This document shows positions 10,246-58,911 of a DNA stretch of 64,000 bases, in pieces (the first letter of the stretch is position 1; every line of letters starts with the position of its first letter). The notes below the pieces were generated by a model. That model was not told the origin of the DNA, made no database searches, and saw nothing but the letters and a program-made list of their open reading frames with translations. Location of the stretch: assembly GCA_965199945.1 (NCBI GenBank), contig OZ241354.1, positions 996,638 through 1,060,637 on the forward strand, given 5' to 3'. Source of the stretch: Candidatus Azotimanducaceae bacterium (GTDB taxonomy: Bacteria > Pseudomonadota > Gammaproteobacteria > Pseudomonadales > Azotimanducaceae). Both the position numbers and the translations under genes were made by a program.

Positions 10246-12099
10246 ATGGCGCCGGCCGATGTCGAGCCTCCGCCGGCGGCGACGGGCGGCGCCGCGGACG
10301 TGAAGCACTTCCTCGCCACGCTGACGACGCGGCCCGGCGTCTACCGCATGGTGGGCGACGGCGACGAGGTGCTGTACGTCGGCAAGGCGCGCAATCTCAA
10401 GGCGCGGGTCACGTCCTACTTCCGCGCTTCCGGCCTCGCGGCGAAGACCCTCGCCCTCACCTCCAAAGTGCGCGACGTGCAGGTGACGGTCACGCCAAGC
10501 GAGACCGAAGCGCTGCTGCTCGAACAGAGCCTCATCAAGGAACACCGGCCGCGCTTCAACGTCGTGCTGCGCGACGACAAGTCCTATCCCTTCATCCACC
10601 TCACCGAGCATCCCTATCCGCGCCTCGGCTTCCATCGCGGCAAGAAGGGCAGCGGGCGCTACTTCGGACCGTTTCCGAGCGCGGCTTCCGTGCGCGACAG
10701 CCTGAACATCCTGCAGAAGCTGTTCGGCATCCGGCCCTGCGCCGACGGCTTCTTCAAGAACCGCTCGCGGCCTTGCCTGCAATACCAGATCAAGCGCTGC
10801 AGCGGCCCGTGCGTGGGCTTGATCGACCGCGAACGCTACGCCGAGGACGTGCGCCTGGCGGTGCTGTTCCTCGAAGGCAAGAGCGCGGACGTGCTGGCCG
10901 AGTTCAAGCGGCGCATGGACGCCGCTGCGGAAAAGCTGGAGTTCGAGCGCGCCGCCCGCCATCGCGACCAGATCAGCCATCTGCGGCGCATTCAGGAGAA
11001 CCAGTACGTCCACGGCGAAGGCGGCGACGTGGACGTCTTCGGCGTGGCGGTGGGCGCCGGCCATGCCTGCGTGCAGGGCCTGTTCGTGCGCGGCGGGCGT
11101 CTTCTCGGCCACCGCACCTGGTTTCCGGGCAACCAGCTGGACGTCGCCGAAGACGAGCTGCTCGTCGCGTTTCTCTCCCAGTACTACCTGGGCGGAGCGG
11201 CGCGGGAAGTGCCGCGCACCGTGGTCGCCGCGGCGCCGCCCGAGGAAGCGCAGCTGCTCGGCACCGCGTTGTCGGAGCGCACCGGGCGCAACACGGAGGT
11301 GGCCTCCCAGGTGCGCGGGCAGCGCGCGCGTTGGGCGGCAATGGCCACGGAAAACGCGCAGTTGGCGCTCGATGCACTGGTCGCCGACCGCAAGAACGTG
11401 TTTGGCCGCTTCGTGGCGCTGCAAGCCGCCCTCGGCTGGGAAGACGTGCCGCGGCGTCTCGAATGCTTCGACATCAGCCACTCCGCCGGCGAGGCCACCG
11501 TCGCCTCGTGCGTCGTCTTCGACAGCAACGGGCCGCTCAAATCCGACTACCGGCGCTTCAACATCGAAGGGGTGCCGAGGAGCGACGACTACGGCGCCAT
11601 CGAGCAGGCCATCCGCCGCCGCTACACGCGCCTGGCGCAAGGAGAGGGCGTCCTGCCGGATGCGCTCGTCATCGACGGCGGCAGCGGCCAGCTGCGGCGC
11701 GCCGCCGAGGTGCTGGAACAGCTGCAGGTGAAGGACGTGGCGCTCATCGGCATCGCCAAGGGCCCCACCCGCAAGGCCGGGCTGGAGACCATCGAAGTGG
11801 CGGGCATTGGCGAACTGGCGCTGCCGCCGAACGGCCCGGCCATGCACCTGCTGCAGCACATCCGCGACGAAGCGCACCGCTTCGCCGTCGCCGGCCATCG
11901 CGGTCGGCGGCAGAGAAAGCGGCGTCAATCGGCCTTGGACGACGTGCCCGGCGTCGGGCCGAAGCGCAAGCGCGAGCTGCTGGCGCACTTCGGCTCCGTC
12001 GTGGCCATCAAGGGTTCGAGCGTTGAGGAGATCGCCAAAGCGCCGGGCATCAGCCGCAAGCTGGCGACGGACATCCACGGCGCCCTGCATGGCGAGTAG
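10246..12099 (+). CDS. uvrC: Excinuclease ABC subunit C
   Basis: ORF 10246..12099. GIY-YIG region GVYRMVGDGDEVLYVGKARNLKARVTSYF, UvrBC-interaction region, and C-terminal HhH (LDDVPGVGPKRKRELLAHFGS). Confidence 0.95.
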   Translation: MAPADVEPPPAATGGAADVKHFLATLTTRPGVYRMVGDGDEVLYVGKARNLKARVTSYFRASGLAAKTLALTSKVRDVQVTVTPSETEALLLEQSLIKEHRPRFNVVLRDDKSYPFIHLTEHPYPRLGFHRGKKGSGRYFGPFPSAASVRDSLNILQKLFGIRPCADGFFKNRSRPCLQYQIKRCSGPCVGLIDRERYAEDVRLAVLFLEGKSADVLAEFKRRMDAAAEKLEFERAARHRDQISHLRRIQENQYVHGEGGDVDVFGVAVGAGHACVQGLFVRGGRLLGHRTWFPGNQLDVAEDELLVAFLSQYYLGGAAREVPRTVVAAAPPEEAQLLGTALSERTGRNTEVASQVRGQRARWAAMATENAQLALDALVADRKNVFGRFVALQAALGWEDVPRRLECFDISHSAGEATVASCVVFDSNGPLKSDYRRFNIEGVPRSDDYGAIEQAIRRRYTRLAQGEGVLPDALVIDGGSGQLRRAAEVLEQLQVKDVALIGIAKGPTRKAGLETIEVAGIGELALPPNGPAMHLLQHIRDEAHRFAVAGHRGRRQRKRRQSALDDVPGVGPKRKRELLAHFGSVVAIKGSSVEEIAKAPGISRKLATDIHGALHGE

Positions 12100-12247: not shown

Positions 12248-12811
12248 ATGACGAGCCTTCCGAACGTCCTCACGCTGGCGCGCATCGGGCTCATCCCGGT
12301 CTTCGCGCTGATCTACGTCGTCACGGACACCTACTACTGGGTGGCGGCGCTGCTGTTCGCCACGGCGGCGGCAACGGACTGGATCGACGGCTACCTGGCG
12401 CGGCGCCTCGGCCAGACCACGCCCTTCGGCACGTTCCTGGATCCGGTCGCGGACAAGCTCATTGTCGTCACCGCGCTGGTGCTGCTGATCGGCAACCACG
12501 CCAGCCTGTGGCTGACAATCCCCGGCGTCGTCATCGTCGGCCGGGAAATCGCCATCTCCGCGCTGCGCGAGTGGATGGCGGAAATGAATCGCCGCGGCCT
12601 CGTCGCCGTCACTTGGACCACCCGCGTAAAGACCGCCATGCAGATGGTCGCGATCATCATCCTGCTGGCGAACCCGCCGGCGATGGTGCCCTGGGTGGTC
12701 GTCGGCCTCGTGCTGCTCTACGCGGCGGTGTGCATCACCACATGGTCGATGGTCGTCTACCTGCGCGCCGCTTGGCCATCGCTCAAGGAAGGGCTGTACG
12801 AGTCGCGGTAG
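12248..12811 (+). CDS. pgsA: CDP-diacylglycerol--glycerol-3-phosphate 3-phosphatidyltransferase
   Basis: ORF 12248..12811. CDP-alcohol phosphatidyltransferase motif DWIDGYLARRLGQTTPFGTFLDPVADK. The uvrC-pgsA-tRNA synteny matches enterobacteria. Confidence 0.93.
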   Translation: MTSLPNVLTLARIGLIPVFALIYVVTDTYYWVAALLFATAAATDWIDGYLARRLGQTTPFGTFLDPVADKLIVVTALVLLIGNHASLWLTIPGVVIVGREIAISALREWMAEMNRRGLVAVTWTTRVKTAMQMVAIIILLANPPAMVPWVVVGLVLLYAAVCITTWSMVVYLRAAWPSLKEGLYESR

Positions 12812-12921
12812 CCGCTGTCTGCCGTGCGAACGGCGCACCAGTCCGAACGCGCTTCGGCTTCGTTCGCGCGCCTTGTGGTAGCATTTCCGAACTTGCCGGA
12901 GCTTGCCGCTTCGCGCATCTC

Positions 12922-12995
12922 GGCTGGATGGCAGAGGGGTTATGCAGCGGACTGCAACTCCGCGTACGCCGGTTCGAATCCGACTCCAGCCTCCA
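12922..12995 (+). tRNA. tRNA-Cys (anticodon GCA)
   Basis: GGCTGGA acceptor stem pairs with TCCAGCC, followed by T and CCA. Anticodon arm is GCGGA-CTGCAAC-TCCGC. T-loop is GGTTCGAATCC with one C-A mismatch in the T stem. The D region resembles E. coli tRNA-Cys. Confidence 0.85.
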
Positions 12996-13061
12996 ACACC
13001 TCCCGACGCAGCGCTGGCGCACCGAGAGCCGTCGCAGCGGGGTTCGCAAGGCTTGGAAGAG

Positions 13062-13148
13062 TGGTGCCTAGGGAGAGACTCGAACTCTCACATGGTTTCC
13101 CATACCAGATTTTGAGTCTGGCGCGTCTACCGATTTCGCCACCTAGGC
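13062..13148 (-). tRNA. tRNA-Leu (anticodon CAA), long variable arm
   Basis: The reverse complement reads GCCTAGGTGGCGAAATCGGTAGACGCGCCAGACTCAAAATCTGGTATGGGAAACCATGTGAGAGTTCGAGTCTCTCCCTAGGCACCA. This is a class II tRNA with a CUCAAAA anticodon loop. Confidence 0.92.
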
Positions 13149-13214
13149 AGGCGAGACGTGGATTCTGCGCCAACGAACGCCGGAGTCAACCCGCTAGTCT
13201 TGCGCGGCTTGGGG

Positions 13215-13246
13215 CTACGCGTCGCAATCCAGCCGATTGGTCGAGA
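13215..13246. repeat. Direct repeat copy 1 (att-like): orphan duplicate of the cytochrome c gene 3' end
   Basis: CTAcGCGTCGCAATCCagCCGATTGGTCGAGA matches 20220-20251 at 29 of 32 positions. On the minus strand it reads ...STNRLDCDA-stop, against ...STNRADCDA-stop at the real gene end. Confidence 0.8.
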
Positions 13247-13257
13247 GTGACGATCTT

Positions 13258-15111
13258 CTAGAAATCCAGAAACTGCAGCGCCCGCATGAGCGGGCCGGGT
13301 TCTGGCCGGGCGCGGAAGGTGTTCGCGTCCAGGCGTTCGAGCAGGCTCGCCATGTCGACGTAGCCGGCCCGCGAAGGCGGCTGCGCAGTTAGCAACGCGC
13401 GAATCGTCGGGAACTGCGCCACCAGCGCGTCCACAAACGGCTCGCTGCGCGCCGGATCCCGCTTCTGCGTGTTCCAGCAGACTTCCGGCGGCAGCACTGT
13501 GCGCATGGCGTGGCGGAACAGCCACCGGGTGTGCTTGCCGCGTCGGAACTGCTCCGGCGGCAGCCCCAGGGCGAACGCCACGAGCCGCCGGTCCAGCAGC
13601 GGATAGGCGTATTCGATGCCGCGCCGGGCGCCGCTGGCCGCCCAGCCTTCCATGCGCGCGGTGAGATGGCCGTTGGCAAGCAGCCCCAGCTGCACGCGGC
13701 GAACGCTAACTGGCCGGCGCTGGGGAACCGTCAGCAGCCGCGTCCGTCGCGCGAACGCGGGGTCGATCAGCCAGCGGCGACGCGGCCCCTCCCGGCCACG
13801 CAGCCGGCGCAGCCGCTCCGGCAGCGCCGGATGCAACAGCGGCAGCGCGACGTTGGCGAGGAAGGGCGCCAAGGCGGCGTCCTGCGCTCGGCACTCGAGA
13901 GCCAACTGCCGCCAACGGCCGCGCAGCAGCAGGCCCTGCAGATGGCCCCGGCCGCCGAACGACGCGCACTCGTCGCCGCCCCAGCCGGAAAGCAGCAGCC
14001 GCACGCCGGCCGCCGCCGCATTGCGCTGCACGATTTCCTCGTTGGGATGGACGTGAATGCCGGGCACGGCGCCGTCCTGGCGCAGCACGCCGAGCAAGTC
14101 GTCCGGCGTCGGCGCGCCGAAGCAGACGCGTAGCCGTTCCTGCCCGCGCACCGCGTCCACCAAGGCGTACTCCGGCGCATGGTCGGGCTTCGGCGGTGCC
14201 GCCCCGAGCGCCGGCAGCCAGGCGAAGGCTGCCGGCGCAGGCCGTCCCTGCTCGCGCAACTCCCGCGCCAGCAATACCGCGATGCTCGACGAATCGAGGC
14301 CCCCGCTCAGATGCGCGCCGACTTCGCCGGCGCCGTAGCCGCGCAGCCGGTCGCGCACGGCCTGCCTGCACAGCGCACGCAGCTGTTCCGCATAGGCATC
14401 GTCCGATGCGGGAGGCTGGCTGGGCGCGTCCTCCGGGCGCCACCAGCGGCGCCGGCGCAGCCGTGGTTCGCCCGCCGCGCCGTTGCGCTGGCTCTCGACC
14501 AGAAGCGAGCAGCCGGGCGGCAGCTTGCGGACGGCGGCGAAGAAGCTCTGCTCCGAGCTCGCCGACGAACTGGCCAGATGCGTGGCGACGACCGCCTCGT
14601 CCAGCGCCGGCGGAACGCCCGGCGCCGCAAGCACGGCCTCGACGGTGGAGGCGAAGAGGAAGGCGCCGCCCTGCACGGCGTAGTAGAAGGGACGGACGCC
14701 GATGTGGTCGCGAGCGCAGAACAGCGCCCGGCGCTGCCCGTCCCAGAGCGCGAACGCGTAGTCGCCGAGCAGCCGGCGCGGACACTCCTCCCCCCACTGC
14801 CGCCAAGCGCGAAGGATCAGCGCCGCGTCGGAGACGGCGCCACGTTCGGCGACGGCAACGCCCAGCGCGTCGCACAGCGCCTGCCGATCGTCGAGGCGGG
14901 CGTCCGCGACCACCGCCAAGCCGGCCTGCCGATCCGCGTACAGCGCGGCGAAGCCGTCTGGCCGTTGGCCGTTTCGGCAGCCGAGGCCGACCCCGCCATC
15001 CGCCGGCGACCATTGCTCCGAGGCACCCGGGACGTGGGCTTCCAGCGCCCCCAGCAGGGCCGGCAGCGCCTTCGGCCCACCGCCCACGCTTCCGCAGATC
15101 GCCGCAGCCAT
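13258..15111 (-). CDS. Asparagine synthetase-like protein, lasso-peptide-cyclase (C protein) type
   Basis: ORF 13258..15111. N-terminal Ntn-like MAAAICG, PP-loop HLSGGLDSSSIAVL, and the overall AsnB-like layout. Adjacent to a PqqD gene. Confidence 0.8.
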   Translation of the reverse strand: MAAAICGSVGGGPKALPALLGALEAHVPGASEQWSPADGGVGLGCRNGQRPDGFAALYADRQAGLAVVADARLDDRQALCDALGVAVAERGAVSDAALILRAWRQWGEECPRRLLGDYAFALWDGQRRALFCARDHIGVRPFYYAVQGGAFLFASTVEAVLAAPGVPPALDEAVVATHLASSSASSEQSFFAAVRKLPPGCSLLVESQRNGAAGEPRLRRRRWWRPEDAPSQPPASDDAYAEQLRALCRQAVRDRLRGYGAGEVGAHLSGGLDSSSIAVLLARELREQGRPAPAAFAWLPALGAAPPKPDHAPEYALVDAVRGQERLRVCFGAPTPDDLLGVLRQDGAVPGIHVHPNEEIVQRNAAAAGVRLLLSGWGGDECASFGGRGHLQGLLLRGRWRQLALECRAQDAALAPFLANVALPLLHPALPERLRRLRGREGPRRRWLIDPAFARRTRLLTVPQRRPVSVRRVQLGLLANGHLTARMEGWAASGARRGIEYAYPLLDRRLVAFALGLPPEQFRRGKHTRWLFRHAMRTVLPPEVCWNTQKRDPARSEPFVDALVAQFPTIRALLTAQPPSRAGYVDMASLLERLDANTFRARPEPGPLMRALQFLDF

Positions 15112-15145
15112 GCCGTCTTCGCTTCCCGCCTCGGCGGCGCCCCGG

Positions 15146-17044
15146 TCAGCCTAGGAACGCCAGCGCCTCGTCGAGATAGCCGAACTTGGCCATCACCTCG
15201 CCGTGCGCGTCCACCAGCGCCCGCACCTGCTGCCGGGTCAGCGCCGAGCGCCAGGAGCCGGCCACGCCGGCGCGGAAGAAGGACTTCGCCGTCGGCGGCT
15301 TCTCGACGAAGCCGAACTCGGTCTCCTGCGCCTGCAGCCGCGCGAAGCTGCTGCGCTCCACAGCTTGGCGCAGCCGCGCCGGATCCTCGCCGAGGCCAAC
15401 GAAGCGAACGATCGCCGCGAATCCGGCTCGCGGACGCGCCAGCAGGTCTTCGTAGCGGGCGACATGGACGGGAATGGCCGTCTGTTCGGTCCAGCTCGAC
15501 ACATGGCCGCTCCAAGTGGTCAGCAGCTCTGGAAAGCGTCCGAAGGCGCCTCCTCGGATGTGCGATTCAAAGCTGCCGTCGCTGTTCATCCAGCCAACAA
15601 TGCGGTCGATGGAGACGTTGCCGTGATGCGCGAAGGAGACGGCGACGTCGAGGGGATTGCGCACTAGGCACACCGCGCCGCCGGTCTTCGGAAACCGTGG
15701 GGCGCGTGGTGCAGCGCGGTAGGCATCGTGGGTCTTCAGGACGAGCGGGTCGCCGTCGTGCGGATGTGCCGCGGGTGGCCCCGCGTTTCCGCCGCCTTCG
15801 GCCAGCCATTCGCGGAACTGCGGCAGATGGCGCTCCACTTCGGCCTCCGTCATGTTCGTGGACTCCGCTCCGAGAAACTCGTCGAAGGCTTGGCGGTGGT
15901 TGCCCCGACCGCCAAGCAGCGCGTTGATGGAGGCCGGCGCGCCGTCTCTGCTCGAGTAGTTGGTCAGCACGGCCCGCAGCCAAGTGTTGCCGCTCTTCGG
16001 GTAGGACGCGAGCCAAACGATGCCCGGCGCGTCGGTATGACCCTGCCTGACGGCAGCGGGCACCTTGGCGGCGACGCGCCGCACGGGCGTGGATCGACTC
16101 CGGGCCGAGGAGGCGCTTGGCCGCCAGCCCGGGGTCGGCTGCAACGTCCTCAGTTGCGCATCGACGCGGGCCGCCAGCGCTTCCAAGGTGAACGGATGCC
16201 GAGGTCGCGTTGCCAACAGCATCGGCACGCGCCGCGCCAGGGCGGTGACGGTGCGGAAGTGCCCCGCGGTACCGCCTATCGCGTCCAGCGCCCGCTTGCG
16301 GTGCGTGTTCTCCGTCAGTGCCCAGAACGCGTCGCCGCAGGACACGAGGCGGATGTCGATTTCCGCGGCGGTGCCTTCGGCCAGTGCGACGGCGGCGAGC
16401 ACCGGCTGCGGCTCGGCACAGTAGCGCTCGGGCTCGGTCCAGTGCTTGTCCAGGCCCTGGCGCACTCTCGCGCCGGCCTGTGCGCGCCAACCCATCCTGT
16501 CCAGCGTCTGCGCCCACAGTTTTTGGCGCGGAAAAGCCGGCAGAGCCAGCGGTTGGCCGCCGGCGTCCAGCACTACGCCGGTGATGTCGTCGGCCAGCAG
16601 CGCATGGCCGCGTCGAACCAACGCCGCCGCCAGCGACGACTTGCCGACGGCGCTCGGGCCAAGCAGCAGCACCGCGCCGCCTTGCCGTGCGACGGCCGCC
16701 GCGTGCAGCGTCGCCACGCCTCTTTGCTGCAGGCAGGGAGCAAGCGCGGCGCTGACGAAAGTGGAGGCCACGTCGCCGGCGTCTCCGAGCGGATCGACCA
16801 GAATGTCCCTGCCGCCTGTGGCCAGGTACCGGACGACGCCTTCGAGCTCGATGAGAAAGGCGCCCGGGCGGGCTTCCCAGATTGGGCCTTTGGTCGTTTG
16901 GCCAGCGCCGGCGGGGAGGGTGCGCGGGACGGCGCCGAGGCGAACGGTCAAGTCTGGCGCGGACGATGGCTTCGGCTGCAAGGGATGGAACGGCAGCGCA
17001 ACGGCGGAGCGCACATGCAGACCGTAGGCGCGGTATTCGTGCAT
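15146..17044 (-). CDS. Fusion protein: N-terminal HPr-kinase-related kinase domain plus C-terminal sulfotransferase domain
   Basis: ORF 15146..17044. The N-terminal half has the HprK-like P-loop LLLGPSAVGKSSLAAALVRRGHALLADD. The C-terminal half has the sulfotransferase PAPS motifs SYPKSGNTWLR (5'-PSB) and VRNPLDVAVSFAHH (3'-PB). The domain boundary is near nt 16050-16150. Confidence 0.8.
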   Translation of the reverse strand: MHEYRAYGLHVRSAVALPFHPLQPKPSSAPDLTVRLGAVPRTLPAGAGQTTKGPIWEARPGAFLIELEGVVRYLATGGRDILVDPLGDAGDVASTFVSAALAPCLQQRGVATLHAAAVARQGGAVLLLGPSAVGKSSLAAALVRRGHALLADDITGVVLDAGGQPLALPAFPRQKLWAQTLDRMGWRAQAGARVRQGLDKHWTEPERYCAEPQPVLAAVALAEGTAAEIDIRLVSCGDAFWALTENTHRKRALDAIGGTAGHFRTVTALARRVPMLLATRPRHPFTLEALAARVDAQLRTLQPTPGWRPSASSARSRSTPVRRVAAKVPAAVRQGHTDAPGIVWLASYPKSGNTWLRAVLTNYSSRDGAPASINALLGGRGNHRQAFDEFLGAESTNMTEAEVERHLPQFREWLAEGGGNAGPPAAHPHDGDPLVLKTHDAYRAAPRAPRFPKTGGAVCLVRNPLDVAVSFAHHGNVSIDRIVGWMNSDGSFESHIRGGAFGRFPELLTTWSGHVSSWTEQTAIPVHVARYEDLLARPRAGFAAIVRFVGLGEDPARLRQAVERSSFARLQAQETEFGFVEKPPTAKSFFRAGVAGSWRSALTRQQVRALVDAHGEVMAKFGYLDEALAFLG

Positions 17045-17230
17045 CGAACCCGAGCCAACATCTGCTTAAGACATCACGATGAGGTAATACGCCGAGTTTC
17101 CAATAGCGTATCACCATTCGGCCCCGATCCTGTCGCTCGAAGATTCCTGCCGGCCCAGATGGTCGGCTTGGACCAAGGCAGCTTGCGGGTGCCGGCTACG
17201 CCTTCCGAGACACGTCTGCCCTCGGCGTTC

Positions 17231-17284
17231 TCAATCCCTTCGCCTTCGGGGGGGGGGGGGGGGGGGGGTCAATTCATCACGCAT
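17231..17284 (-). other. 17-codon ORF spanning the poly-C tract (MRDELTPPPPPPRRRRD); the reading frame depends on tract length
   Basis: My own translation of the minus strand. With 20 or 23 C the ORF would extend to a stop at 17074-17076 (about 69 codons). With 22 C it ends after PKAKGLRTPRADVSRKA. No evidence it is expressed. Confidence 0.15.
17248..17268. repeat. Homopolymeric tract, 21 G (poly-C on the strand of the flanking genes)
   Basis: Counted directly: 3+10+8 G at 17248-17268. It lies in the 288-nt gap between the PqqD stop (17333) and the kinase-sulfotransferase start (17044). Confidence 0.95.
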
Positions 17285-17332
17285 CAGATAATCCCAAGAT
17301 TGAACCAGTGCAGGCGTCCGGACGCGCCAGAT

Positions 17333-17650
17333 TCAGGAAGCCGACGGCAACGCGAAGATGCGCTGTTCCAAGCCGGCCTGCAGAAACTCCAACGTGTCGC
17401 GCTCGCAAGTCTCCGCATCCACGTCGTATTCGCCGGCGAGGGCGTCGCAGATGCTGCTGGCCGATCTGGGCTCCTCGAGCAGAGTCCAAGCGCGCGAGGC
17501 GACCGGATCGAGCTCGTAGTATTGGCCTTCGTCGACGTCCACCATCACGACGGTGTCGTACAAGCGCGTGAACACGATGGCATCGTTGCGCGCAATCACC
17601 GACGAGAGCGCCACTCTCGGCTGCCCTTCGTCTTCGCTGGCGGCAGACAT
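17333..17650 (-). CDS. PqqD-family peptide chaperone (RRE / lasso B1-like)
   Basis: ORF 17333..17650. AIVFTRLYDTVVMVDVDEGQYYELDPVASRAWTLLEEPRSASSICDALAGEYDVDAETCERDTLEFLQAGLEQRI matches the PqqD pattern. Confidence 0.8.
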   Translation of the reverse strand: MSAASEDEGQPRVALSSVIARNDAIVFTRLYDTVVMVDVDEGQYYELDPVASRAWTLLEEPRSASSICDALAGEYDVDAETCERDTLEFLQAGLEQRIFALPSAS

Positions 17651-17812
17651 CCGCGTTCATCCCATTGCCCAGCCGAGCAGGATCATAACGCAAACCGCCA
17701 CCGTTTCAACAGCCTTCACAGCCTTCCCACGGGCGCATCGCAAGCCTCGACTCTGTCCGCCAAGACCGTGCCCACCGGCGCGGGGACAGAACCGGGCGCG
17801 GCCTCGGCCGCG

Positions 17813-17866
17813 ATGAACCATGCTACTTTCACCGCCGACGAGAGCGCGAGGGGCACCCTCGCATGA
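17813..17866 (+). other. Conserved 17-codon upstream ORF (MNHATFTADESARGTLA) ahead of Uma2 copy 1
   Basis: Same length and position as 19009-19062 (MNHATFASDENARGTRA). Both end in TGA inside the first GCGAGGG..CCCTCGC-type hairpin. Confidence 0.3.
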
Positions 17867-17912
17867 AGGGAGCCCTCAGCGGGGAGCGCGAGGGGCACCC
17901 TCGCTTGTAAAA
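17845..17912 (+). repeat. Two hairpin repeat units (GCGAGGGGCACCCTCGC) in the 5' leader of Uma2 copy 1
   Basis: The repeat unit is AGCCCTCAGCGGGGAGCGCGAGGGGCACCCTCGC. The 7-bp stem GCGAGGG/CCCTCGC has a 3-nt loop. Confidence 0.7.
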
Positions 17913-17925
17913 GGAGAACAGCCAC

Positions 17926-18843
17926 ATGAGAGCGCCTCCGCCGGTCAGCGCGGCCGCGGCCGCCGCCTCGAATGTCGGCGCAACCCGCGCGGACGACGTG
18001 TTCTATCCGAGCTCGGACGGCAGGCCGATGGCGGACGACATGTGGCAGGGGACAGCCCTCAGGAGCGCCGCCGGCGATCTCGAAGCGGTGCGCCCGACGG
18101 CGCTGGTGGCGTGGGCCATCCTGGTGTACCCGGAGGAGGGGAACAACAAGAACCGCATCGCGTCGGACGTGCTGGTGGGGCTTGGACTGGGAACGCACAA
18201 CCGATCGAGCTACTTCGTCTGGGAGGAGGGCAAGCCGCCGGACTGGGTTCTGGAGGTGGCGTCGCCCCGCAAGCAGGCGGAGGACCGGGGCTACAAGCGG
18301 CGCTACTACGCGGAGATGGGCGTGCCGGAATACTGGATGTTCGATCCCAAGGGCGACTTGTACCCGCCCGGGATCCCACGGCTGCAGGGGCTGAAGCTGG
18401 TGGACGGCGAGTACCGTCCGTTGGAATCGCGGGTGGTGGACGGCGAGTGGACGATCCGCAGCGAGGTGCTGGGCCTGGATATCCGCGTGGATGGCGAGCT
18501 GCTTCGCTTCCGGGACGTCGCGACGGGCCGGGATGTCCTCCGCCGCAGCGAGGTCGAGGCGGCCATTGAACGGTACCAGGCGGCCACTAGACGGCACCGG
18601 GCGGCCACTGAACGGCACCGAGCGGCCACTGAACGCGCCTTGGCGGACGCCGAACGGCACAGGGCGGCCACTGAACGCGCCCGGTCTAGGCGGGAAGCCC
18701 TGCGCAAGGCCGCCGAAGTCCGCGCCGAGCAGGAAAAAGCCCGGGCCGAGCAGGAAGCTACCCTTCGCTCGGCTGCCGAGGCTCGCATCGCGGAGTTGGA
18801 GGCTGCACTGCGGCGCTCAAGGGCGGGCCATCCCGCTGAATAG
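17926..18843 (+). CDS. Uma2-family (DUF820, PD-(D/E)xK-like) endonuclease with C-terminal heptad-repeat extension, copy 1
   Basis: ORF 17926..18843. YPSSDGRPMADDMWQ...SDVLVGLG...PDWVLEVASP...KRRYYAEMGVPEYWMFDP is typical of Uma2. The C-terminal tail is ERHRAATERHRAATER...AEQEKARAEQEA. RBS AAGGAGA precedes the ATG. Confidence 0.8.
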   Translation: MRAPPPVSAAAAAASNVGATRADDVFYPSSDGRPMADDMWQGTALRSAAGDLEAVRPTALVAWAILVYPEEGNNKNRIASDVLVGLGLGTHNRSSYFVWEEGKPPDWVLEVASPRKQAEDRGYKRRYYAEMGVPEYWMFDPKGDLYPPGIPRLQGLKLVDGEYRPLESRVVDGEWTIRSEVLGLDIRVDGELLRFRDVATGRDVLRRSEVEAAIERYQAATRRHRAATERHRAATERALADAERHRAATERARSRREALRKAAEVRAEQEKARAEQEATLRSAAEARIAELEAALRRSRAGHPAE

Positions 18844-19008
18844 CCGCTGACAGTCGCTCCCGCAGGTCTTTCGCGCATCCGATCGCCGCGATTTCGCACA
18901 CGACGCATGGCGATTGTCCTACAGACGGGCGCATTTCAAGCCCCGACACTGTCCGCCGAGACCGTGCCCAACGGCGCGGGGACAGAACGGGGCGCGGCCT
19001 CGGCCGCG

Positions 19009-19062
19009 ATGAACCATGCTACTTTCGCCAGCGACGAGAACGCGAGGGGAACCCGCGCATGA
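19009..19062 (+). other. Conserved 17-codon upstream ORF (MNHATFASDENARGTRA) ahead of Uma2 copy 2
   Basis: Paralogous to 17813-17866, with the same length. Confidence 0.3.
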
Positions 19063-19185
19063 GAGCCCTCAGCCGGGAGCGCGAGGGGAACCCTCGCAAG
19101 CAAGGAGCCCTCAGCGGGGAGCGCGAGGGCACCCCTCGCATGTAAAGAGCCCTCAGCAGGGAGCGCGAGGGGAACCCTCGCATGA
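19040..19185 (+). repeat. Four hairpin units, three of them in a 42-bp tandem array, in the 5' leader of Uma2 copy 2
   Basis: AGCCCTCAG starts at 19064, 19106 and 19148 (period 42). Each unit carries a GCGAGGGG-N-CCCTCGC palindrome. One degenerate unit lies at 19041-19057. Confidence 0.75.
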
Positions 19186-19202
19186 AGAAGGAGAACAGCC
19201 AC

Positions 19203-20150
19203 ATGAGAGCGCCTCTGCCGGTCACCGCGGCCGCGGCTGCCGCCGCCTCGAACGTCGGCGCCGTGCGCGTGGACGACGTGTTCTACCCGAGCTCGGACGG
19301 TAGGCCGATGTCGGACAACATGTGGCAGGGGAAAGCCATTACGAACGCCGACGGCGACCTCGAATCGGCCCACCCGAAGGCGCTCGTGGCGGCGGACATC
19401 CTCGTGTACCCGGAGAAGGGGAACAACAGGAACCGCATTGCGCCGGACGTGCTGGTGGCGCTCGGGCTGGGAATGCACTACCGCTCGAGCTACTTCGTGT
19501 GGGAGGAGGGCAAGCCCCCGGACTGGGTTCTGGAGGTGGCGTCGCCGAGCACGAAGAAGAAGGATCTGGACGACAAGCGGCGCAAGTACGCGGAGATGGG
19601 CGTGCCGGAGTACTGGCTGTTCGATCCCAAGGGCGACGTTTACCCGCCCGGGACGCCGCGGCTGCAGGGGCTGAAGCTGGTGGACGGCGAGTACCGTCCG
19701 CTGAAGTCGCGCCTCGTGGACGGCAAGCGGATGATCCGCAGCGAAGTGCTGGGCTTGGACGTGCGCGTGGATGGCAAGCTGCTCCGCTTCCGGGACGTCG
19801 CGACGGGCCGGGACATCCAACATCGCAGCGAGGTCGAGGCGGACAAGAAACGCGCCCTGGCGGCCATTGAACGGCACCGGGCGGCCACTGAACGCGCCCA
19901 CGCGGCCACCGAACGCGCCCACGCAGCCACCGAACGCGCTCAAGCCCAGGCCAGGCAGGAAGCTGCGCAGCGCAAGAACGCCGAAGCCCACGCCAAGCAG
20001 GAAGCGGCCCGCGCCGAACAGGAGGCGGCCCGTGCCAAGCAGGAGGCCGCCCGTGCGGAACGGGAAGCTGCCCTTCGCTCGGCTGCCGAAGCGCGCATCG
20101 CGGAGTTGGAGGCCGCGCAGCGGCTCCCGAAGGGCGGGCCATCCCAGTGA
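19203..20150 (+). CDS. Uma2-family endonuclease with C-terminal coiled-coil extension, copy 2 (tandem paralogue)
   Basis: Within ORF 19182..20150. The ATG at 19203 is positionally equivalent to 17926 (GAAGGAGAACAGCCACATG). The protein is collinear with copy 1. Confidence 0.8.
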   Translation: MRAPLPVTAAAAAAASNVGAVRVDDVFYPSSDGRPMSDNMWQGKAITNADGDLESAHPKALVAADILVYPEKGNNRNRIAPDVLVALGLGMHYRSSYFVWEEGKPPDWVLEVASPSTKKKDLDDKRRKYAEMGVPEYWLFDPKGDVYPPGTPRLQGLKLVDGEYRPLKSRLVDGKRMIRSEVLGLDVRVDGKLLRFRDVATGRDIQHRSEVEADKKRALAAIERHRAATERAHAATERAHAATERAQAQARQEAAQRKNAEAHAKQEAARAEQEAARAKQEAARAEREAALRSAAEARIAELEAAQRLPKGGPSQ

Positions 20151-20219
20151 ATAGCCACTGACCTGCGATTTGCCACACACCCTCGCCGCGCGTCGGCGAA
20201 AGTCGGCGCTGTGCCCGAG

Positions 20220-20251
20220 CTATGCGTCGCAATCCGCCCGATTGGTCGAGA
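20220..20251. repeat. Direct repeat copy 2 (att-like): the functional 3' end of the cytochrome c gene
   Basis: CTAtGCGTCGCAATCCgcCCGATTGGTCGAGA; see 13215-13246. Confidence 0.8.
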
Positions 20252-20573
20252 TGTACGCCACGAGGCGCCAGATGTCGTCGTCGCCTTGGGGGAGCTTGCC
20301 CTTGAAGCCGATCATCGCCGTGTCCGGCACGCCGCTGGCGATGATGTCGAAGAGTTCCTGGTCGCCACCCGTGCCGTTCTGCCAAGTGCAGTCGAACAGG
20401 TTGGGGGCGGCGCGCTCCACCGTCGGGCTGTGGCAGTAGCCGGCGCAGGTGCCCACGAACAGCGACTTGCCGCGTTGCAGCGCCTGCTGGTCGGCGCGAA
20501 AGGCGTCCGCCGGGCTCTCCGGCTGACAGGCAGCGGCGCAGAGGGCGAGCAGCAGCGCGACGCTCGAACGCAC
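20220..20573 (-). CDS. Periplasmic c-type cytochrome (XoxG/PedF-like partner of the PQQ dehydrogenase)
   Basis: ORF 20220..20573. Signal/lipobox-like MRSSVALLLALCAAAC and heme motif CAGYCH. It is the last gene of the PQQ-dehydrogenase operon. Confidence 0.8.
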   Translation of the reverse strand: MRSSVALLLALCAAACQPESPADAFRADQQALQRGKSLFVGTCAGYCHSPTVERAAPNLFDCTWQNGTGGDQELFDIIASGVPDTAMIGFKGKLPQGDDDIWRLVAYISTNRADCDA

Positions 20574-20579
20574 GGCGCA

Positions 20580-21386
20580 CTAGGGCGCAAGCAGCGCTTG
20601 CATGGACGCCCGCGTGTGCGTGGTCTCGAAGGGAGCGTGGGCGGGGAAGCGGTGCTGCCGCATGAGCGCCAGCAGGGCCGCTTGCACGGCCTCATCGGCA
20701 AAGGCGCGGTTCAACGCCGCCAGCAGCGGATCGTCCCGCCGGGCGGTGGCATGCAGGTTCCAACGCAGCACCGCCGGCGGCGCGAAACCGTCGTTCCGGC
20801 CGATGTCCACCGTCGCCAAGTCGGGGCCCCACACAAGCGCAGACGTGGCCGCCCCGGTGCGCAGCGCGGCGAGGATGCCAGCGGTCTCCGCCTGCATGGT
20901 CCAGCGCGCGCCAAGCGCGTCTACGGCGACATGCGCCACGGAATTGGCGCGCACCGCCACCACGCCGGCGTAGGGTTCCTTCCAGCGGAAGGCGGAACCG
21001 GCCGGCAGGAGCTCGAAGGCGGCGCCGTAGTAGGGCTCGCTCAGCACCAATCGACCGCGAAAGCGGGCGATCGCGTCTGCGCCGGGCACCGAGAGCTGCG
21101 CGTCGCACTGGCCGGTCAGGATCGGCCGGTAGTCCACGTCGGTGGATTCGATGTCGGTCTGATAGCGCTCCGCGACCCAGACGATGCGCAAGTTCCGCTG
21201 CAAGTGCCGAGCGAGCAGCCGCGCCACGTCCACGTCGAAGCCTTGGGCGCCGGCGCGGAGCGACCGCGGCGGGTCGTTCTCCGCGAAGCAGACGGAGAGC
21301 TGGGCCTCTTGCGCGGCAGGTGTCGCGGCAATTGCCGCAACTGCGGCGCTGGCGGCCAAGGCGGCCGCCAGAGCCAGACGCCTCAT
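20580..21386 (-). CDS. Quinoprotein-dehydrogenase-associated periplasmic substrate-binding protein (XoxJ/MoxJ-like)
   Basis: This is the last 268 codons of ORF 20580..23222, starting MRRLALAAALAASAAVAAIA (ATG 21386). It has a type-2 SBP-like sequence and sits between the PQQ dehydrogenase and the cytochrome c. Confidence 0.7.
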   Translation of the reverse strand: MRRLALAAALAASAAVAAIAATPAAQEAQLSVCFAENDPPRSLRAGAQGFDVDVARLLARHLQRNLRIVWVAERYQTDIESTDVDYRPILTGQCDAQLSVPGADAIARFRGRLVLSEPYYGAAFELLPAGSAFRWKEPYAGVVAVRANSVAHVAVDALGARWTMQAETAGILAALRTGAATSALVWGPDLATVDIGRNDGFAPPAVLRWNLHATARRDDPLLAALNRAFADEAVQAALLALMRQHRFPAHAPFETTHTRASMQALLAP

Positions 21387-21412
21387 CGACGCGCAGGTTG
21401 AGCGCTGGGCGC

Positions 21413-23236
21413 TCAATCCGGCAGCGCGAAGACGAACAAGTGGCCGCCTTCCGGAATCGCCGTGCGGCCGCCGGCGAAGGCCACGAAGGTGGCGTAGTTG
21501 CCGGAGCCGATGGCGACATACGTCTTGCCGCCGGCGCGGTAGGCCACCGGCTGGCTGCGCATGCCGCTGCCCATGCGGAACCGCCACAGCAATTCGCCGC
21601 TCGCCGCATCCAACGCCAAGGCGAAGCCCTCCTGGTTGCCGGTGAAGACGACGCCGCTCGCCAGCGACAGCACGCCGCCCATCATCGGGTCGCGGTCCAT
21701 GTAGCGCCAGCGCACTTCGCCGGTGTGGACGTCGATGGCGGAGAGATGGCCGTGCGCCTTGCCTGCCTCCACGTCGATGGGAATGGGCGTGCCGCCCATG
21801 AACGGCTGGCCCTTCACGAACGCCGTGATGCCCTTTTGGTAGTACTGGCACGATTCCACCACGGGAATGTAGGCGAGGCTCAAGTCTGGATTGAGAGCGC
21901 CCGTCCACGCGCCGTTCATGCCGCCTAGGTTGCTGGGGCAAACGCGGTAGTTTGGTTCCTCGGTGGGATTGGCGCGCGGATCCACCACCGGCCGCCCGTT
22001 CTCGTCGAGCGTTGCCCAGTTGAGTTCCTCCACGTAGATGCTGGCGTCGATGAAAGCGCCGGTGGCGCGATCGAGGATGTAGAAGAAGCCGTTGCGGTTG
22101 GCTTGCACGATGGCTGGGGTGACGGCCCCGTCGCGCTCGACGTCGACGAGGAACAGCTGCGTGTTGCCGTCGTAGTCCCACACGTCGTGGGGCGTGAACT
22201 GGAAGTGCCAAAGGCGCTCGCCGGTGTCGGGATTTACCGCCAGCAGGCTGTTGGAGTAGAGGTTGTCGCCGGCGCGCAGATCGCCGTTCCAGTCCGGAGA
22301 GGGGTTGCCGGTGGTCCAATAAAGCACGTCGGCTTCGGGATCGTAGGCGCCGCTGGTCCAAGCCGGAGCGCCGCCCGTCTTCCACGAATCGCCCGCCCAC
22401 GTCTCCACGCCCGGCTCGCCTTCCACGGGCACGGTGTAGTGGCGCCAGCGCAGTTCGCCGGTGGCCACGTCGTAGGCGTCGAAGAAGCCGCGCACGCCGA
22501 ACTCCCCGCCGGCGATGCCGATGACGGCCATGTCCTTGACGATCATGGGCATGGAGGTGGCGCTGAAGCCCTCGTCGTGTTCCGCCAACGTCACTTCCCA
22601 CCGCTTCTCGCCGGTGAGCCGGTGGAACGCCACCATCTTGGCATCCAGAGTCGCCATCAGCACCAGATCGCCGCTCAGCGCGGCGCCCCGATTCACCGTG
22701 CCGCAGCAGAGCTTCATGTCCTGGCGATCCGGCAGCGGATGGTCGTAGCGCCAGTAGATCTCGCCGGTCTCGGCGTTCAGTGCGAACAGGCGGTTGAACG
22801 AGGTGGTGACGTACATGATGCCGTCGTAGATCGTCGGCGACACCTCGAACTGCTCCGTGGTGCCGGTGGGAAACGCCCAGGCCACCTCGAGGTCGGCCAC
22901 GTTGGCCGGCGTGATGTCGTCGATGGGCGAGTGGCGAAGATTGGCGTAGTCGCCGCCGTAGAGCAGCCACTTCTCGGGATCGGCCGGGCCAGCCAGCAGA
23001 TCGGCGTTGGTCGTCGGCCCGCCGCCGTTGCCGATGGGCTCGTCGATCGTCCAGTGCGTGGGCAAGGGGGGCGCCGCGGCCGCTTCCACGGCCATCTCGG
23101 CGACGGGCGCGGCTTCGGCGGGGGCCTGCTCTTCCTGCGGAGGAACCGCAGTGGATTCCGGCGGCTGGCAGCCGAGCGACAGTGCGGCGGCGACGAACGC
23201 GGCGACGCCGAGCGCAGCGCATTTGGAATGGTTCAC
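21413..23236 (-). CDS. PQQ-dependent dehydrogenase, methanol/ethanol family (XoxF/PedH-like, predicted lanthanide type), lipoprotein signal
   Basis: Within ORF 21413..23275. Vicinal disulfide KLCCGTVNRG, W-rich propeller repeats, and DVWDYDGNTQ (Asp two residues after the catalytic Asp). GTG 23236 is preceded by GGAGG. Signal peptide ends in the lipobox LSLGC. Confidence 0.88.
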   Translation of the reverse strand: MNHSKCAALGVAAFVAAALSLGCQPPESTAVPPQEEQAPAEAAPVAEMAVEAAAAPPLPTHWTIDEPIGNGGGPTTNADLLAGPADPEKWLLYGGDYANLRHSPIDDITPANVADLEVAWAFPTGTTEQFEVSPTIYDGIMYVTTSFNRLFALNAETGEIYWRYDHPLPDRQDMKLCCGTVNRGAALSGDLVLMATLDAKMVAFHRLTGEKRWEVTLAEHDEGFSATSMPMIVKDMAVIGIAGGEFGVRGFFDAYDVATGELRWRHYTVPVEGEPGVETWAGDSWKTGGAPAWTSGAYDPEADVLYWTTGNPSPDWNGDLRAGDNLYSNSLLAVNPDTGERLWHFQFTPHDVWDYDGNTQLFLVDVERDGAVTPAIVQANRNGFFYILDRATGAFIDASIYVEELNWATLDENGRPVVDPRANPTEEPNYRVCPSNLGGMNGAWTGALNPDLSLAYIPVVESCQYYQKGITAFVKGQPFMGGTPIPIDVEAGKAHGHLSAIDVHTGEVRWRYMDRDPMMGGVLSLASGVVFTGNQEGFALALDAASGELLWRFRMGSGMRSQPVAYRAGGKTYVAIGSGNYATFVAFAGGRTAIPEGGHLFVFALPD

Positions 23237-23377
23237 GGCATGGCCTCCCAGGTTCCCTCTGATTCGTGCGGCCATTATTGCCTAAACGACGCCTTCCCTG
23301 TTTGCTGGCGTGCAGGCGGGGCAGCAGAGGGAAGCGACGGCTCCTTTGGACGCGACGTGTCGCGGCCTTGGAGGCCT

Positions 23378-33140: not shown

Positions 33141-33410
33141 GGCAACCTCCTTCTTGCTCTTGCTTGCTTCGGTGGCGCCGCGCACATGATCTCGACGACA
33201 CAAGCGCATCCTAGACCGTCAGAATCGGCCAAGAAACAGGCGATGTCGCAATGGCACGCGCGTGTTTGCCGCAATGGGCCGTAGGATATCGCCCTCTCCT
33301 TGGCTTCCGCCCCCACCGAGCGCATCAGTTGCCCCAATACAGTGCGTTTTTCGAGACATGATGTGCGTAAGATGCGCACGCTCCCATAGCCCATTAAGTA
33401 GAACCCGAAG

Positions 33411-58878: not shown

Positions 58879-58887
58879 GGGCGATAG
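58879..58887. repeat. Target-site duplication (right), GGGCGATAG
   Basis: See 57353-57361. Confidence 0.85.
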
Positions 58888-58911
58888 AATCCGCCGCGCA
58901 ACTTGGCTCGC

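Follow-up and report, generated by a model that had tools for sequence, protein, structure and literature searches.

An orphan cytochrome c gene end between tRNA-Leu and a RiPP-like gene cluster in Azotimanducaceae as a possible relic of an ancient insertion

In E. coli, e14 and phage 21 integrate into the 3′ end of icd, the element bringing a substitute end while the displaced original survives, at the far junction, as an orphan. The locus described here lies in a 64-kb stretch of DNA from a Candidatus Azotimanducaceae bacterium of the Pseudomonadales (the window) and resembles these systems in having a direct repeat of the last codons and stop of a gene, one copy functional and one orphan, with few substitutions and with accessory DNA in between. 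It differs from them in lacking any integrase, excisionase or phage gene and any empty-site polymorphism, in a repeat length of 33 nt compared with approximately 165 nt at icd, in an orphan that is eroding across strains, and in a cargo consisting of a RiPP cluster and Uma2 genes. TRNA-targeted genomic islands offer a second comparison, since here also accessory DNA lies by a tRNA gene and is flanked by a short direct repeat. The repeat at this locus is however not tRNA sequence, the segment lies on the 5′ (promoter) side of tRNA-Leu and not in the 3′ end of that gene, and there is no integrase.

The features of the locus are given below with window positions, strand and the basis of each assignment.

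13062 to 13148, minus strand: tRNA-Leu(CAA), with its 5′ end toward the accessory segment (ARAGORN; Rfam RF00005, 60.9 bits)
13149 to 13194, minus strand: 46-nt block common to all strains, bounding the variable region on the left (strain alignments and promoter scan)
13195 to 13213, no strand: 19-nt spacer of the window strain only, weakly resembling one allele of the cytochrome c 3′ flank
13214 to 13246, minus strand: left copy, orphan pseudo-3′ end of cytochrome c (STNRLDCDA-stop), a relic (orthologous 15-16-nt remnants in type A strains)
13258 to 15111, minus strand: Asn-synthase-like, lasso-cyclase-like protein, 617 aa (Pfam Asn_synthase and GATase_7; NCBIfam lasso cyclase)
15146 to 17044, minus strand: HPr-kinase-like domain fused to a sulfotransferase, 632 aa (Pfam Hpr_kinase_C and Sulfotransfer_1; NCBIfam)
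17066 to 17284, minus strand: precursor-peptide-like small ORF, MRDELT-polyPro...KLPWSKPTIW... (six-frame translation and comparison with L085-L090)
17333 to 17650, minus strand: PqqD-family peptide chaperone (RRE), 105 aa (Pfam PqqD; NCBIfam lasso PqqD chaperone models below cut-off)
17722 to 20162, plus strand: two tandem Uma2 units, Uma2a at 17926-18843 and Uma2b at 19182-20150 (Pfam Uma2; repeat search)
20219 to 20251, minus strand: right copy, true cytochrome c 3′ end (STNRADCDA-stop), invariant in all relatives
20220 to 20573, minus strand: c-type cytochrome, 117 aa, last gene of the PQQ-dehydrogenase operon (Pfam Cytochrome_CBB3; weak MoxG match)
20580 to 21392, minus strand: MoxJ-like periplasmic binding protein, 270 aa (weak NCBIfam MoxJ matches; beside the dehydrogenase in at least 20 species)
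21413 to 23275, minus strand: PQQ-dependent alcohol dehydrogenase of the methanol/ethanol family (Pfam PQQ; NCBIfam TIGR03075, 552 bits, above cut-off)

Read directly from the window, the left copy (13214 to 13246) is GCTACGCGTCGCAATCCAGCCGATTGGTCGAGA and the right copy (20219 to 20251) is GCTATGCGTCGCAATCCGCCCGATTGGTCGAGA. The two are identical in 30 of 33 positions, and a repeat search returned the same pair. An earlier reading of this DNA from the sequence only had placed the repeat at 13215-13246 and 20220-20251, and its 29 identical positions out of 32 were obtained again on re-reading. Read on the minus strand, the right copy codes for ...STNRADCDA-stop, the end of the 117-aa cytochrome c, and the left copy, which spans the last 10 codons and the stop of that gene, reads STNRLDCDA-stop without any gene ahead of it. 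The earlier description of the right copy as the true gene end and of the left copy as an orphan pseudo-3′-end, separated from tRNA-Leu(CAA) by a gap of 66 nt, is thereby confirmed. The left copy starts 11 nt beyond the stop of the Asn-synthase-like gene. Pairwise and local alignments with shuffles showed no significant homology past the 33 nt on either side; the score of the 20 nt after the stop of the left copy (13195 to 13214) against the L076 allele was equalled by 9 of 500 shuffles, which is not significant given that seven alleles were tested. A 28-mer pattern with up to 3 mismatches matched these two sites only in the 64-kb window, with 0 matches expected (100 shuffles), and each related locus holds exactly one repeat copy, the cytochrome c end. 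For the 64 kb and the related loci these counts speak against a REP/MITE-like dispersed repeat, and within the window the repeat is not the common dispersed sequence that the earlier reading had raised as an objection to itself. The repeat had 0 matches each in JGI metagenome contigs and viral contigs.

The locus was compared with that of approximately 15 strain-level relatives, 92-98% identical, in which it takes several forms. The full left copy was found in the window strain only and in none of the relatives. Type A strains (L077-L081 and L086) have a remnant of 15-16 nt, CATCTCGACCAATCGGC or TCCCGACCAATCGGC, equally far from the Asn-synthase stop; in L086 it is a 16-nt exact match to the strain's own cytochrome c tail (a length reached by 0 of 2000 shuffles, maximum 14). 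Since this remnant stands at the same spot, the left copy should be older than the split of the strains, and since the STNRxDCDA motif is specific to the species complex the copy would have arisen within this lineage. In another group of strains, type B, the left copy is gone. The RiPP-less strains L075 and L076 have imprecise deletions with ends that are not at the repeats, and keep a Uma2 gene together with toxin-antitoxin fragments. Fragments of the type A antitoxin and toxin genes occur in the type B and the RiPP-less forms, which are therefore taken to be deletion derivatives of type A. L002, L077 and L081 also contain IS481 and IS3 genes, as sporadic secondary insertions.

The limits of the variation are sharp. 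All strain alignments break at 13194/13195, and variation begins exactly outside the predicted tRNA-Leu promoter (TTGACT-16-CAGAAT at 13189-13162, within the 46-nt block) and outside the cytochrome c stop. The 19-nt spacer of the window strain shares no exact sub-motif with any locus and does not match the type A interval significantly. The tRNA-Leu and tRNA-Cys genes form a convergent pair with nothing in between, and Rfam families over 12500-21000 were represented by these two tRNAs only. In other species the PQQ-dehydrogenase operon showed no tRNA-Leu adjacency within 10 kb and no integrase beside the cytochrome c gene, where the neighbours are housekeeping genes, unknown genes and a single DDE transposase.

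Pfam and NCBIfam scans of all ORFs of the segment bore out the earlier statement that no integrase, recombinase or transposase lies between the copies. A tyrosine or serine recombinase was likewise found in none of at least 14 related haplotypes and nowhere in the rest of the 64-kb window, where the search for an integrase turned up an ISLre2/UPF0236-like gene only, and no search done gave an integrase remnant or an attP-bearing element. The empty site with a single repeat copy that the sequence-only reading expected in relatives, and whose absence it had named as speaking against integration, was found in none of approximately 15 strain-level haplotypes, and in no case did a presence/absence polymorphism break precisely at the two repeats, the deletions of L075 and L076 being imprecise. 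Searched as a whole, the segment gave one 161-nt asnB match only among plasmids and nothing among phages. A transposon or IS with target-site duplication (2-15 bp) was rejected, the repeat being 33 nt long, with no inverted repeat at the segment ends and no transposase in the segment. With no empty site, no integrase and a left copy of 15-16 nt or none in strains with the same cargo, the two copies do not appear to work as attL and attR of a separate mobile unit of 7 kb. The earlier proposal of site-specific integration with regeneration of the gene end thus stands in one part, as an insertion duplicating the 3′ end is still the simplest origin, and finds no support in the other, that of functional att sites.

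Between the repeats lie the Asn-synthase-like cyclase, the HPr-kinase-like/sulfotransferase fusion, PqqD and two Uma2 genes. This DNA had been called accessory, rightly so, because the RiPP genes are broken, truncated or absent in many strains and have homologues (55-68% identity) in unrelated contexts of other genomes. G+C is 74-75% over 13500-15000 compared with approximately 69% in the flanks. The closest described clusters are the kinase-bearing (paeninodin-type) lasso clusters, beside some of which sulfotransferase genes have been recorded (PMC8498205), and which share with the segment an Asn-synthase-like cyclase, a PqqD-type RRE, an HPr-kinase homologue and precursors ending in Ser (PMC8498205). 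Unlike these, the segment has no B2 leader peptidase or transporter, its kinase is fused to a sulfotransferase, its cyclase and PqqD fall under the NCBIfam lasso cut-offs (the best NCBIfam match of the Asn-synthase-like protein, the lasso cyclase model, scoring 317 bits against a cut-off of 525), and its precursor of approximately 60-70 aa has a polyPro/KPWSKPT leader and no obvious ring-forming Asp/Glu at positions 7-9. A PqqD-like B1 is present in the segment; an ORF for a transglutaminase-like B2 leader peptidase was found neither there nor in the homologous clusters of L087-L090. The precursor-like family is conserved in its KPWSKPT leader and C-terminal Ser and shows no consistent acidic residue at core positions 7-9. 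In the window this ORF carries a frameshift in a C21 homopolymer (G21 on the plus strand, 17248-17268), a tract that varies in length from 10 to 24 among strains.

The two Uma2 units are 86-89% identical in DNA, in blocks, with 42-nt hairpin repeats ahead of each. Nothing implicates Uma2 in mobilisation, for which the earlier reading had put it forward as the DNA-acting candidate, and strains that have lost the RiPP genes still have a Uma2 gene. A linkage of Uma2 with the RiPP genes was considered and dropped, since Uma2 is absent beside three of four distant homologous clusters; that beside the fourth is a distant Uma2, with 31-35% identity.

At a probability of roughly 50%, the left 33-mer is a relic of an ancient insertion of accessory DNA at the cytochrome c 3′ end, and the segment is now immobile. 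A Uma2 module and a lasso-like RiPP module would have been inserted at this gene end in the ancestor of the species complex, leaving a duplicated, non-functional gene end in the manner of e14 and phage 21 at icd, and the recombinase or recombination route responsible would since have been lost together with mobility. Thereafter the interval from the tRNA-Leu promoter to the cytochrome c stop may have behaved as an unconstrained indel hot spot, in which, in the type A lineage, a toxin-antitoxin cassette would have taken the place of the relic's distal half, later deletions would have cleared what was left of the relic (type B) or the RiPP module as a whole, and IS elements would have struck several strains, leaving the window strain with the least-eroded version. 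The repeat, the orphan state of its left copy, the partial orthologues in other strains, the lack of an empty site and of an integrase and the imprecision of the deletions are observed. An original event of insertion with target-end duplication, and a window arrangement that is ancestral, are what we infer. One replacement event leads from the window form to type A, and for the reverse a 16-nt match would have to exist already and be extended from a template. The population tree is star-like, recombining and incongruent between loci and gives no rooting, so that this polarity follows from parsimony of events and not from an outgroup. Against insertion stands that no strain has the cytochrome c gene abutting tRNA-Leu, that the operon of other species has no tRNA-Leu within 10 kb, and that neither an integrase nor a remnant of one nor an attP-bearing element came to light. 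As the repeat is only 33 nt long, an integrase, a Campbell-type single crossover and homology-facilitated illegitimate recombination are indistinguishable as its cause.

Duplication followed by erosion would do without any insertion at the cytochrome c end. In one version a tandem duplication of 7 kb began in the cytochrome c tail and reached just beyond the Asn-synthase-like gene; in the other a second cytochrome c paralogue stood on the downstream side of the RiPP genes. Either would later have been deleted save for its last 33 nt. Tandem duplication at the locus is evident from the two Uma2 units, deletions are frequent, and partial copies near the tRNA pair do occur, as in OZ251532.1 (L061, a related species), where a 256-nt, 93% identical pseudogene copy of the 3′ part of its own cytochrome c gene lies 4.2 kb from the same tRNA-Leu/tRNA-Cys pair. 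We nevertheless regard this course of events as rather unlikely, since it takes two events and a coincidence, a deletion ending within 1 nt of the copy's stop and 11 nt after the Asn-synthase stop, and since neither another remnant of the second copy, nor extended homology, nor a cytochrome c tail relic after Uma2a, the sign of a larger tandem unit, was found. A templated patch in the window lineage, by which a toxin-antitoxin deletion was repaired by template switching or gene conversion with the cytochrome c tail, 7 kb off, as the source, primed on a short match already present, would account for the break between window and type A inside the repeat (at approximately 13231/13232) and for the confinement of the distal 17 nt of the left copy and of the unexplained 19-nt filler to the window strain. 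Such a patch is however improbable, as it needs a chance 16-nt match in type A, which the shuffles never produced, and as 2 of 18 templated positions differ from a strain-invariant template, unexpectedly for a recent copy.

A still-functional integrative element with attL and attR, moved in trans by an integrase encoded at another place in the genome or by its own Uma2 nucleases, is very unlikely. The direct repeats of a gene 3′ end, the accessory cargo, the slightly deviating G+C and the Uma2 neighbour of one distant RiPP cluster would agree with such an element, but none of the approximately 15 haplotypes shows a precise excision or an empty site, one strain only has a left site that is neither degraded nor lost, the deletions that spare Uma2 have ragged ends, the 64 kb hold no integrase, most of the distant RiPP clusters are without Uma2, and neither the repeat nor the segment has a copy in viral, plasmid, phage and JGI metagenome collections. 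Scarcely any credence is given to an integrase-less cassette inserting at, and regenerating, the cytochrome c 3′ end by an unrecognised route such as break-and-copy 'homing' by the tandem Uma2 PD-(D/E)XK nucleases; were it true, the independent partial cytochrome c copy of L061 would be a second trace left by that process.

The footprint is best read as ordinary genome evolution that reveals no new mobility mechanism, and it cautions that one pair of flanking repeats is not evidence of current mobility. It documents the decay of an insertion scar, the same orphan gene end being present at 33, 15-16 and 0 nt in co-occurring strains of an uncultured species complex. More interesting than the repeat is the RiPP cargo, which may merit separate attention as a widespread lasso-like cluster without B2 peptidase, with a kinase-sulfotransferase fusion and an unusual precursor family conserved in its polyPro/KPWSKPT sequence.

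Two direct repeats about 7 kb apart bracket the segment, and re-reading of the sequence and a repeat search recovered the same pair, identical at 30 of 33 positions (29 of 32 over 13215-13246 and 20220-20251, as the sequence-only reading had stated). With up to 3 mismatches allowed, a 28-nt pattern found the two copies and no other site in the 64 kb, and nothing in 100 shuffles. Translation on the minus strand confirmed the right copy as the true cytochrome c end (...STNRADCDA-stop, 117-aa c-type cytochrome). The left copy reads STNRLDCDA-stop with no gene upstream, in agreement with its description as an orphan pseudo-3' end, and lies 11 nt beyond the Asn-synthase-like stop codon and 66 nt from tRNA-Leu(CAA). 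No significant similarity extended beyond the 33 nt on either side of the copies. Gene order, derived from a third-position G+C scan and Pfam/NCBIfam searches, is uvrC, pgsA, tRNA-Cys(+), tRNA-Leu(-), left copy, RiPP genes, Uma2a, Uma2b, right copy, operon, tsf and rpsB.

Features of the window around the repeat pair
13062-13148, minus: tRNA-Leu(CAA)
adjoining tRNA-Leu, plus: tRNA-Cys
13189-13162, minus: predicted sigma-70-like promoter TTGACT-16-CAGAAT, inside the 46 nt adjoining tRNA-Leu
13214-13246, minus: left copy, GCTACGCGTCGCAATCCAGCCGATTGGTCGAGA, read directly
13258-15111, minus: Asn-synthase-like protein, best match the lasso cyclase model (317 bits against a cut-off of 525)
between the Asn-synthase-like gene and the precursor-like ORF: HPr-kinase-like/sulfotransferase fusion
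17066-17284, minus: precursor-like small ORF, between PqqD and the kinase/sulfotransferase
between the precursor-like ORF and Uma2a: PqqD
tandem units: Uma2a and Uma2b, 86-89% identical in blocks
20219-20251, minus: right copy, GCTATGCGTCGCAATCCGCCCGATTGGTCGAGA, read directly
ending in the right copy: cytochrome c, 117 aa, then a MoxJ-like protein
beyond the MoxJ-like protein: PQQ alcohol dehydrogenase (TIGR03075, 552 bits)

Because the tRNA-Cys and tRNA-Leu genes converge, the segment is on the side of the tRNA-Leu promoter and does not occupy the 3' end of a tRNA gene. Profile searches (Pfam/NCBIfam) agreed with the earlier claim that the segment holds no integrase, recombinase or transposase, and found none in the rest of the 64-kb window except one ISLre2/UPF0236-like gene at 57366-59267 (minus), whose 633-aa product weakly matches UPF0236 (ISLre2-type transposase). 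A single ORF of about 6311 codons at 33402-52334 (plus), with coding-like third-position G+C, probably encodes a giant surface or adhesin-type protein. Directly upstream of both Uma2 start codons (17842-17910, 19050-19185) are 42-nt tandem repeats, each with a GCGAGGG...CCCTCGC hairpin, two before Uma2a and about four before Uma2b, the number being higher or lower in other strains. The Uma2 C-terminal parts (18536-18722, 19795-20069) are built from tandem units of 21 nt (7 aa) in which E, A, R, K and Q are abundant; these units are coiled-coil-like in appearance and differ in number between Uma2a and Uma2b.

Many ENA metagenome-assembled contigs, which share 92-98% identity with the window, encode exactly the same cytochrome c and pgsA proteins. 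Among species-representative genomes, the operon was located in uncultured Pseudomonadales/'Ca. Azotimanducaceae' MAGs, with 84% at the protein level for the closest match in another species. Single samples (e.g. ERZ25070167) hold many distinct strains of the species complex (loci L001-L008 and L075-L086), with 2-6% divergence and incongruent gene trees among co-occurring strains. Each relative carried the 33-mer exactly once, at the cytochrome c end, even with up to 6 substitutions allowed. The C-terminal motif STNRxDCDA is restricted to the species complex of the window, which places the origin of the orphan copy in this lineage. Several forms were distinguished over the interval from the tRNA-Leu promoter to the Asn-synthase stop.

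Haplotype forms, and further changes in single strains
Window form: 19-nt unique spacer, 33-nt copy, 11 nt
Type A (L077-L081, L086): 94-aa ORF, RelE/ParE-type toxin gene, about 150 nt, partial copy (CATCTCGACCAATCGGC in L086; TCCCGACCAATCGGC in L077-L081), 10 nt
Type B (L002-L004 = L082-L084, L085): 91-aa ORF joined almost directly to the Asn-synthase stop, partial copy lost
RiPP-less (L001 = L075, L076): missing from inside the toxin gene through the end of Uma2a
L002/L082: IS481-type gene between PqqD and Uma2
L077, L081: IS3-type insertion truncating the cluster, then unrelated genes
L080: insertion within the Asn-synthase gene
L003/L083, L085: internal deletions

The type A toxin gene and its overlapping 94-aa partner ORF lie on the tRNA-Leu side (L078:10998-11559; also L077, L079-L081 and L086); the toxin scores 56.9 bits with TIGR02683 against a curated cut-off of 62.85 (E-value 2e-15). 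The pair is not in the window, and fragments are left in type B and RiPP-less strains, the latter also keeping an 85-nt filler and one Uma2 gene.

The partial copy of L086 matches the cytochrome c tail of the same strain exactly over 16 nt, in the position and orientation of the window's left copy. Since it lies at the same place and no match of 16 nt arose in 2000 shuffles of the 152-nt interval (maximum 14), the type A remnant is homologous to the left copy, and the duplication is older than the strain divergence. The window form leads to type A by one replacement, a toxin-antitoxin cassette in place of 37 nt, and type B and RiPP-less forms derive from type A by deletion, as both still hold pieces of its genes. 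The reverse route would require a deletion and a templated extension of the pre-existing 16-nt match. On parsimony, the window form is taken as the least-eroded ancestral state. The population tree, without outgroup rooting, has a star-like shape and disagrees between loci, a sign of recombination.

At least 20 other species conserve the PQQ-dehydrogenase/MoxJ-like/cytochrome c operon, and none of them has a tRNA-Leu within 10 kb downstream. Many of these species have in common a downstream neighbourhood unlike that of the window, made up of housekeeping or unknown genes without integrases. Another species, OZ251532.1, has an intact operon (L011) and, at L061 (9996-10250), a frameshifted duplicate of its cytochrome c gene's 3' part, which spans 256 nt at 93% identity and ends at the stop codon. 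The same tRNA-Leu/tRNA-Cys pair is 4.2 kb away, so that partial copies of cytochrome c close to these two tRNA genes are a recurrent finding. Between copy and tRNA pair are accessory genes including a methyltransferase, an ISLre2-like protein and a YhgA-like 'Transposase_31'. Further observations at L061 are a 39%-identical relative of the window's 57366-59267 protein within this stretch, a 52-nt inverted piece of the cytochrome c 5' end (11328-11379), and a distance of about 388 kb, in inverted orientation, to the intact operon.

Chance is excluded as the origin of the repeat by both sets of shuffles, and a dispersed repeat, which would have undone the earlier interpretation, by two copies in 64 kb and one per related locus. 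Transposon-type target duplication is ruled out, 33 nt being too long and terminal inverted repeats and a transposase lacking. The most probable origin, at roughly even odds (about 0.5), is an ancient insertion at the cytochrome c 3' end that would have duplicated its last 33 nt or so, one copy keeping the gene intact and the other left as an orphan; the machinery would then have been lost and the scar would be decaying. Elements e14 and phage 21 at icd similarly keep the gene intact with one end copy and orphan the other. In structure the repeat pair looks like the 'regenerated 3' end' left by integrative elements, but two of their defining features, a recombinase gene and precise presence/absence polymorphism, are lacking. 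The same structure would result from an integrase, from a Campbell-type single crossover or from homology-facilitated illegitimate recombination, and 33 nt do not suffice to tell these apart. An appreciably weaker candidate is duplication with subsequent deletion, or a second copy of cytochrome c that eroded; it agrees with the instability of the locus and has a precedent in L061, but needs two events and a deletion end coinciding with the stop codon. That templated repair produced the copy in the window lineage is improbable given the 16-nt relic in type A and the mismatch at 2 of 18 positions between the would-be templated part and its template, the latter being invariant in all strains.

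Least credible is an element that is still active and moves with help in trans or through Uma2, a reading that the population data contradict. Insertion with gene-end duplication is reasonable as a past event. The discrete, possibly mobile attL/attR unit of the sequence-only reading is not supported: among about 15 haplotypes there was neither the single-copy empty site it predicted nor an integrase, full-cargo strains lack a usable left site, and deletion ends in RiPP-less strains are ragged and away from the repeats. Searches of viral contigs, of phage and plasmid records and of JGI metagenome contigs recovered neither the repeat nor the segment. On the evidence, the segment is not at present a mobile island. 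Uma2, named earlier as the only DNA-acting candidate on board, is kept in RiPP-less strains and adjoins only one of the four distant homologous clusters (L087-L090), with only 31-35% identity, so that Uma2-driven mobility is without support.

In these four clusters the Asn-synthase-like protein is 58-69% identical and is accompanied by kinase, sulfotransferase and a small ORF; they lie in unrelated contexts without cytochrome c or tRNA-Leu nearby. The DNA between the copies is accessory, as had been proposed, also on a longer timescale. The cargo resembles kinase-bearing lasso clusters (PMC8498205) but lacks a B2 peptidase and scores under curated lasso cut-offs. Lacking this leader peptidase, the RiPP cluster may not be a canonical lasso system. 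The conserved precursor-like ORF (window 17066-17284 (-), L085:573-785, L087:3928-4134, L088:8738-8935, L089:10195-10374, L090:5814-5990(-)) has an N-terminal polyPro stretch, the leader motif (K/R)(K/R)PW(S/T/A)KPT(I/F), about 30 further residues and, in most cases, Ser at the C terminus. The window's ORF has a frameshift at the C21 tract that encodes the prolines (17248-17268); tract length ranges from 10 to 24 among strains, which could reflect phase variation or long-read homopolymer error. Inactivation of the cluster by different routes in at least six strains suggests relaxed selection. The repeat is an ordinary evolutionary scar of a familiar type, seen here in several stages of its decay, and the RiPP cluster inside the segment is the more promising lead.
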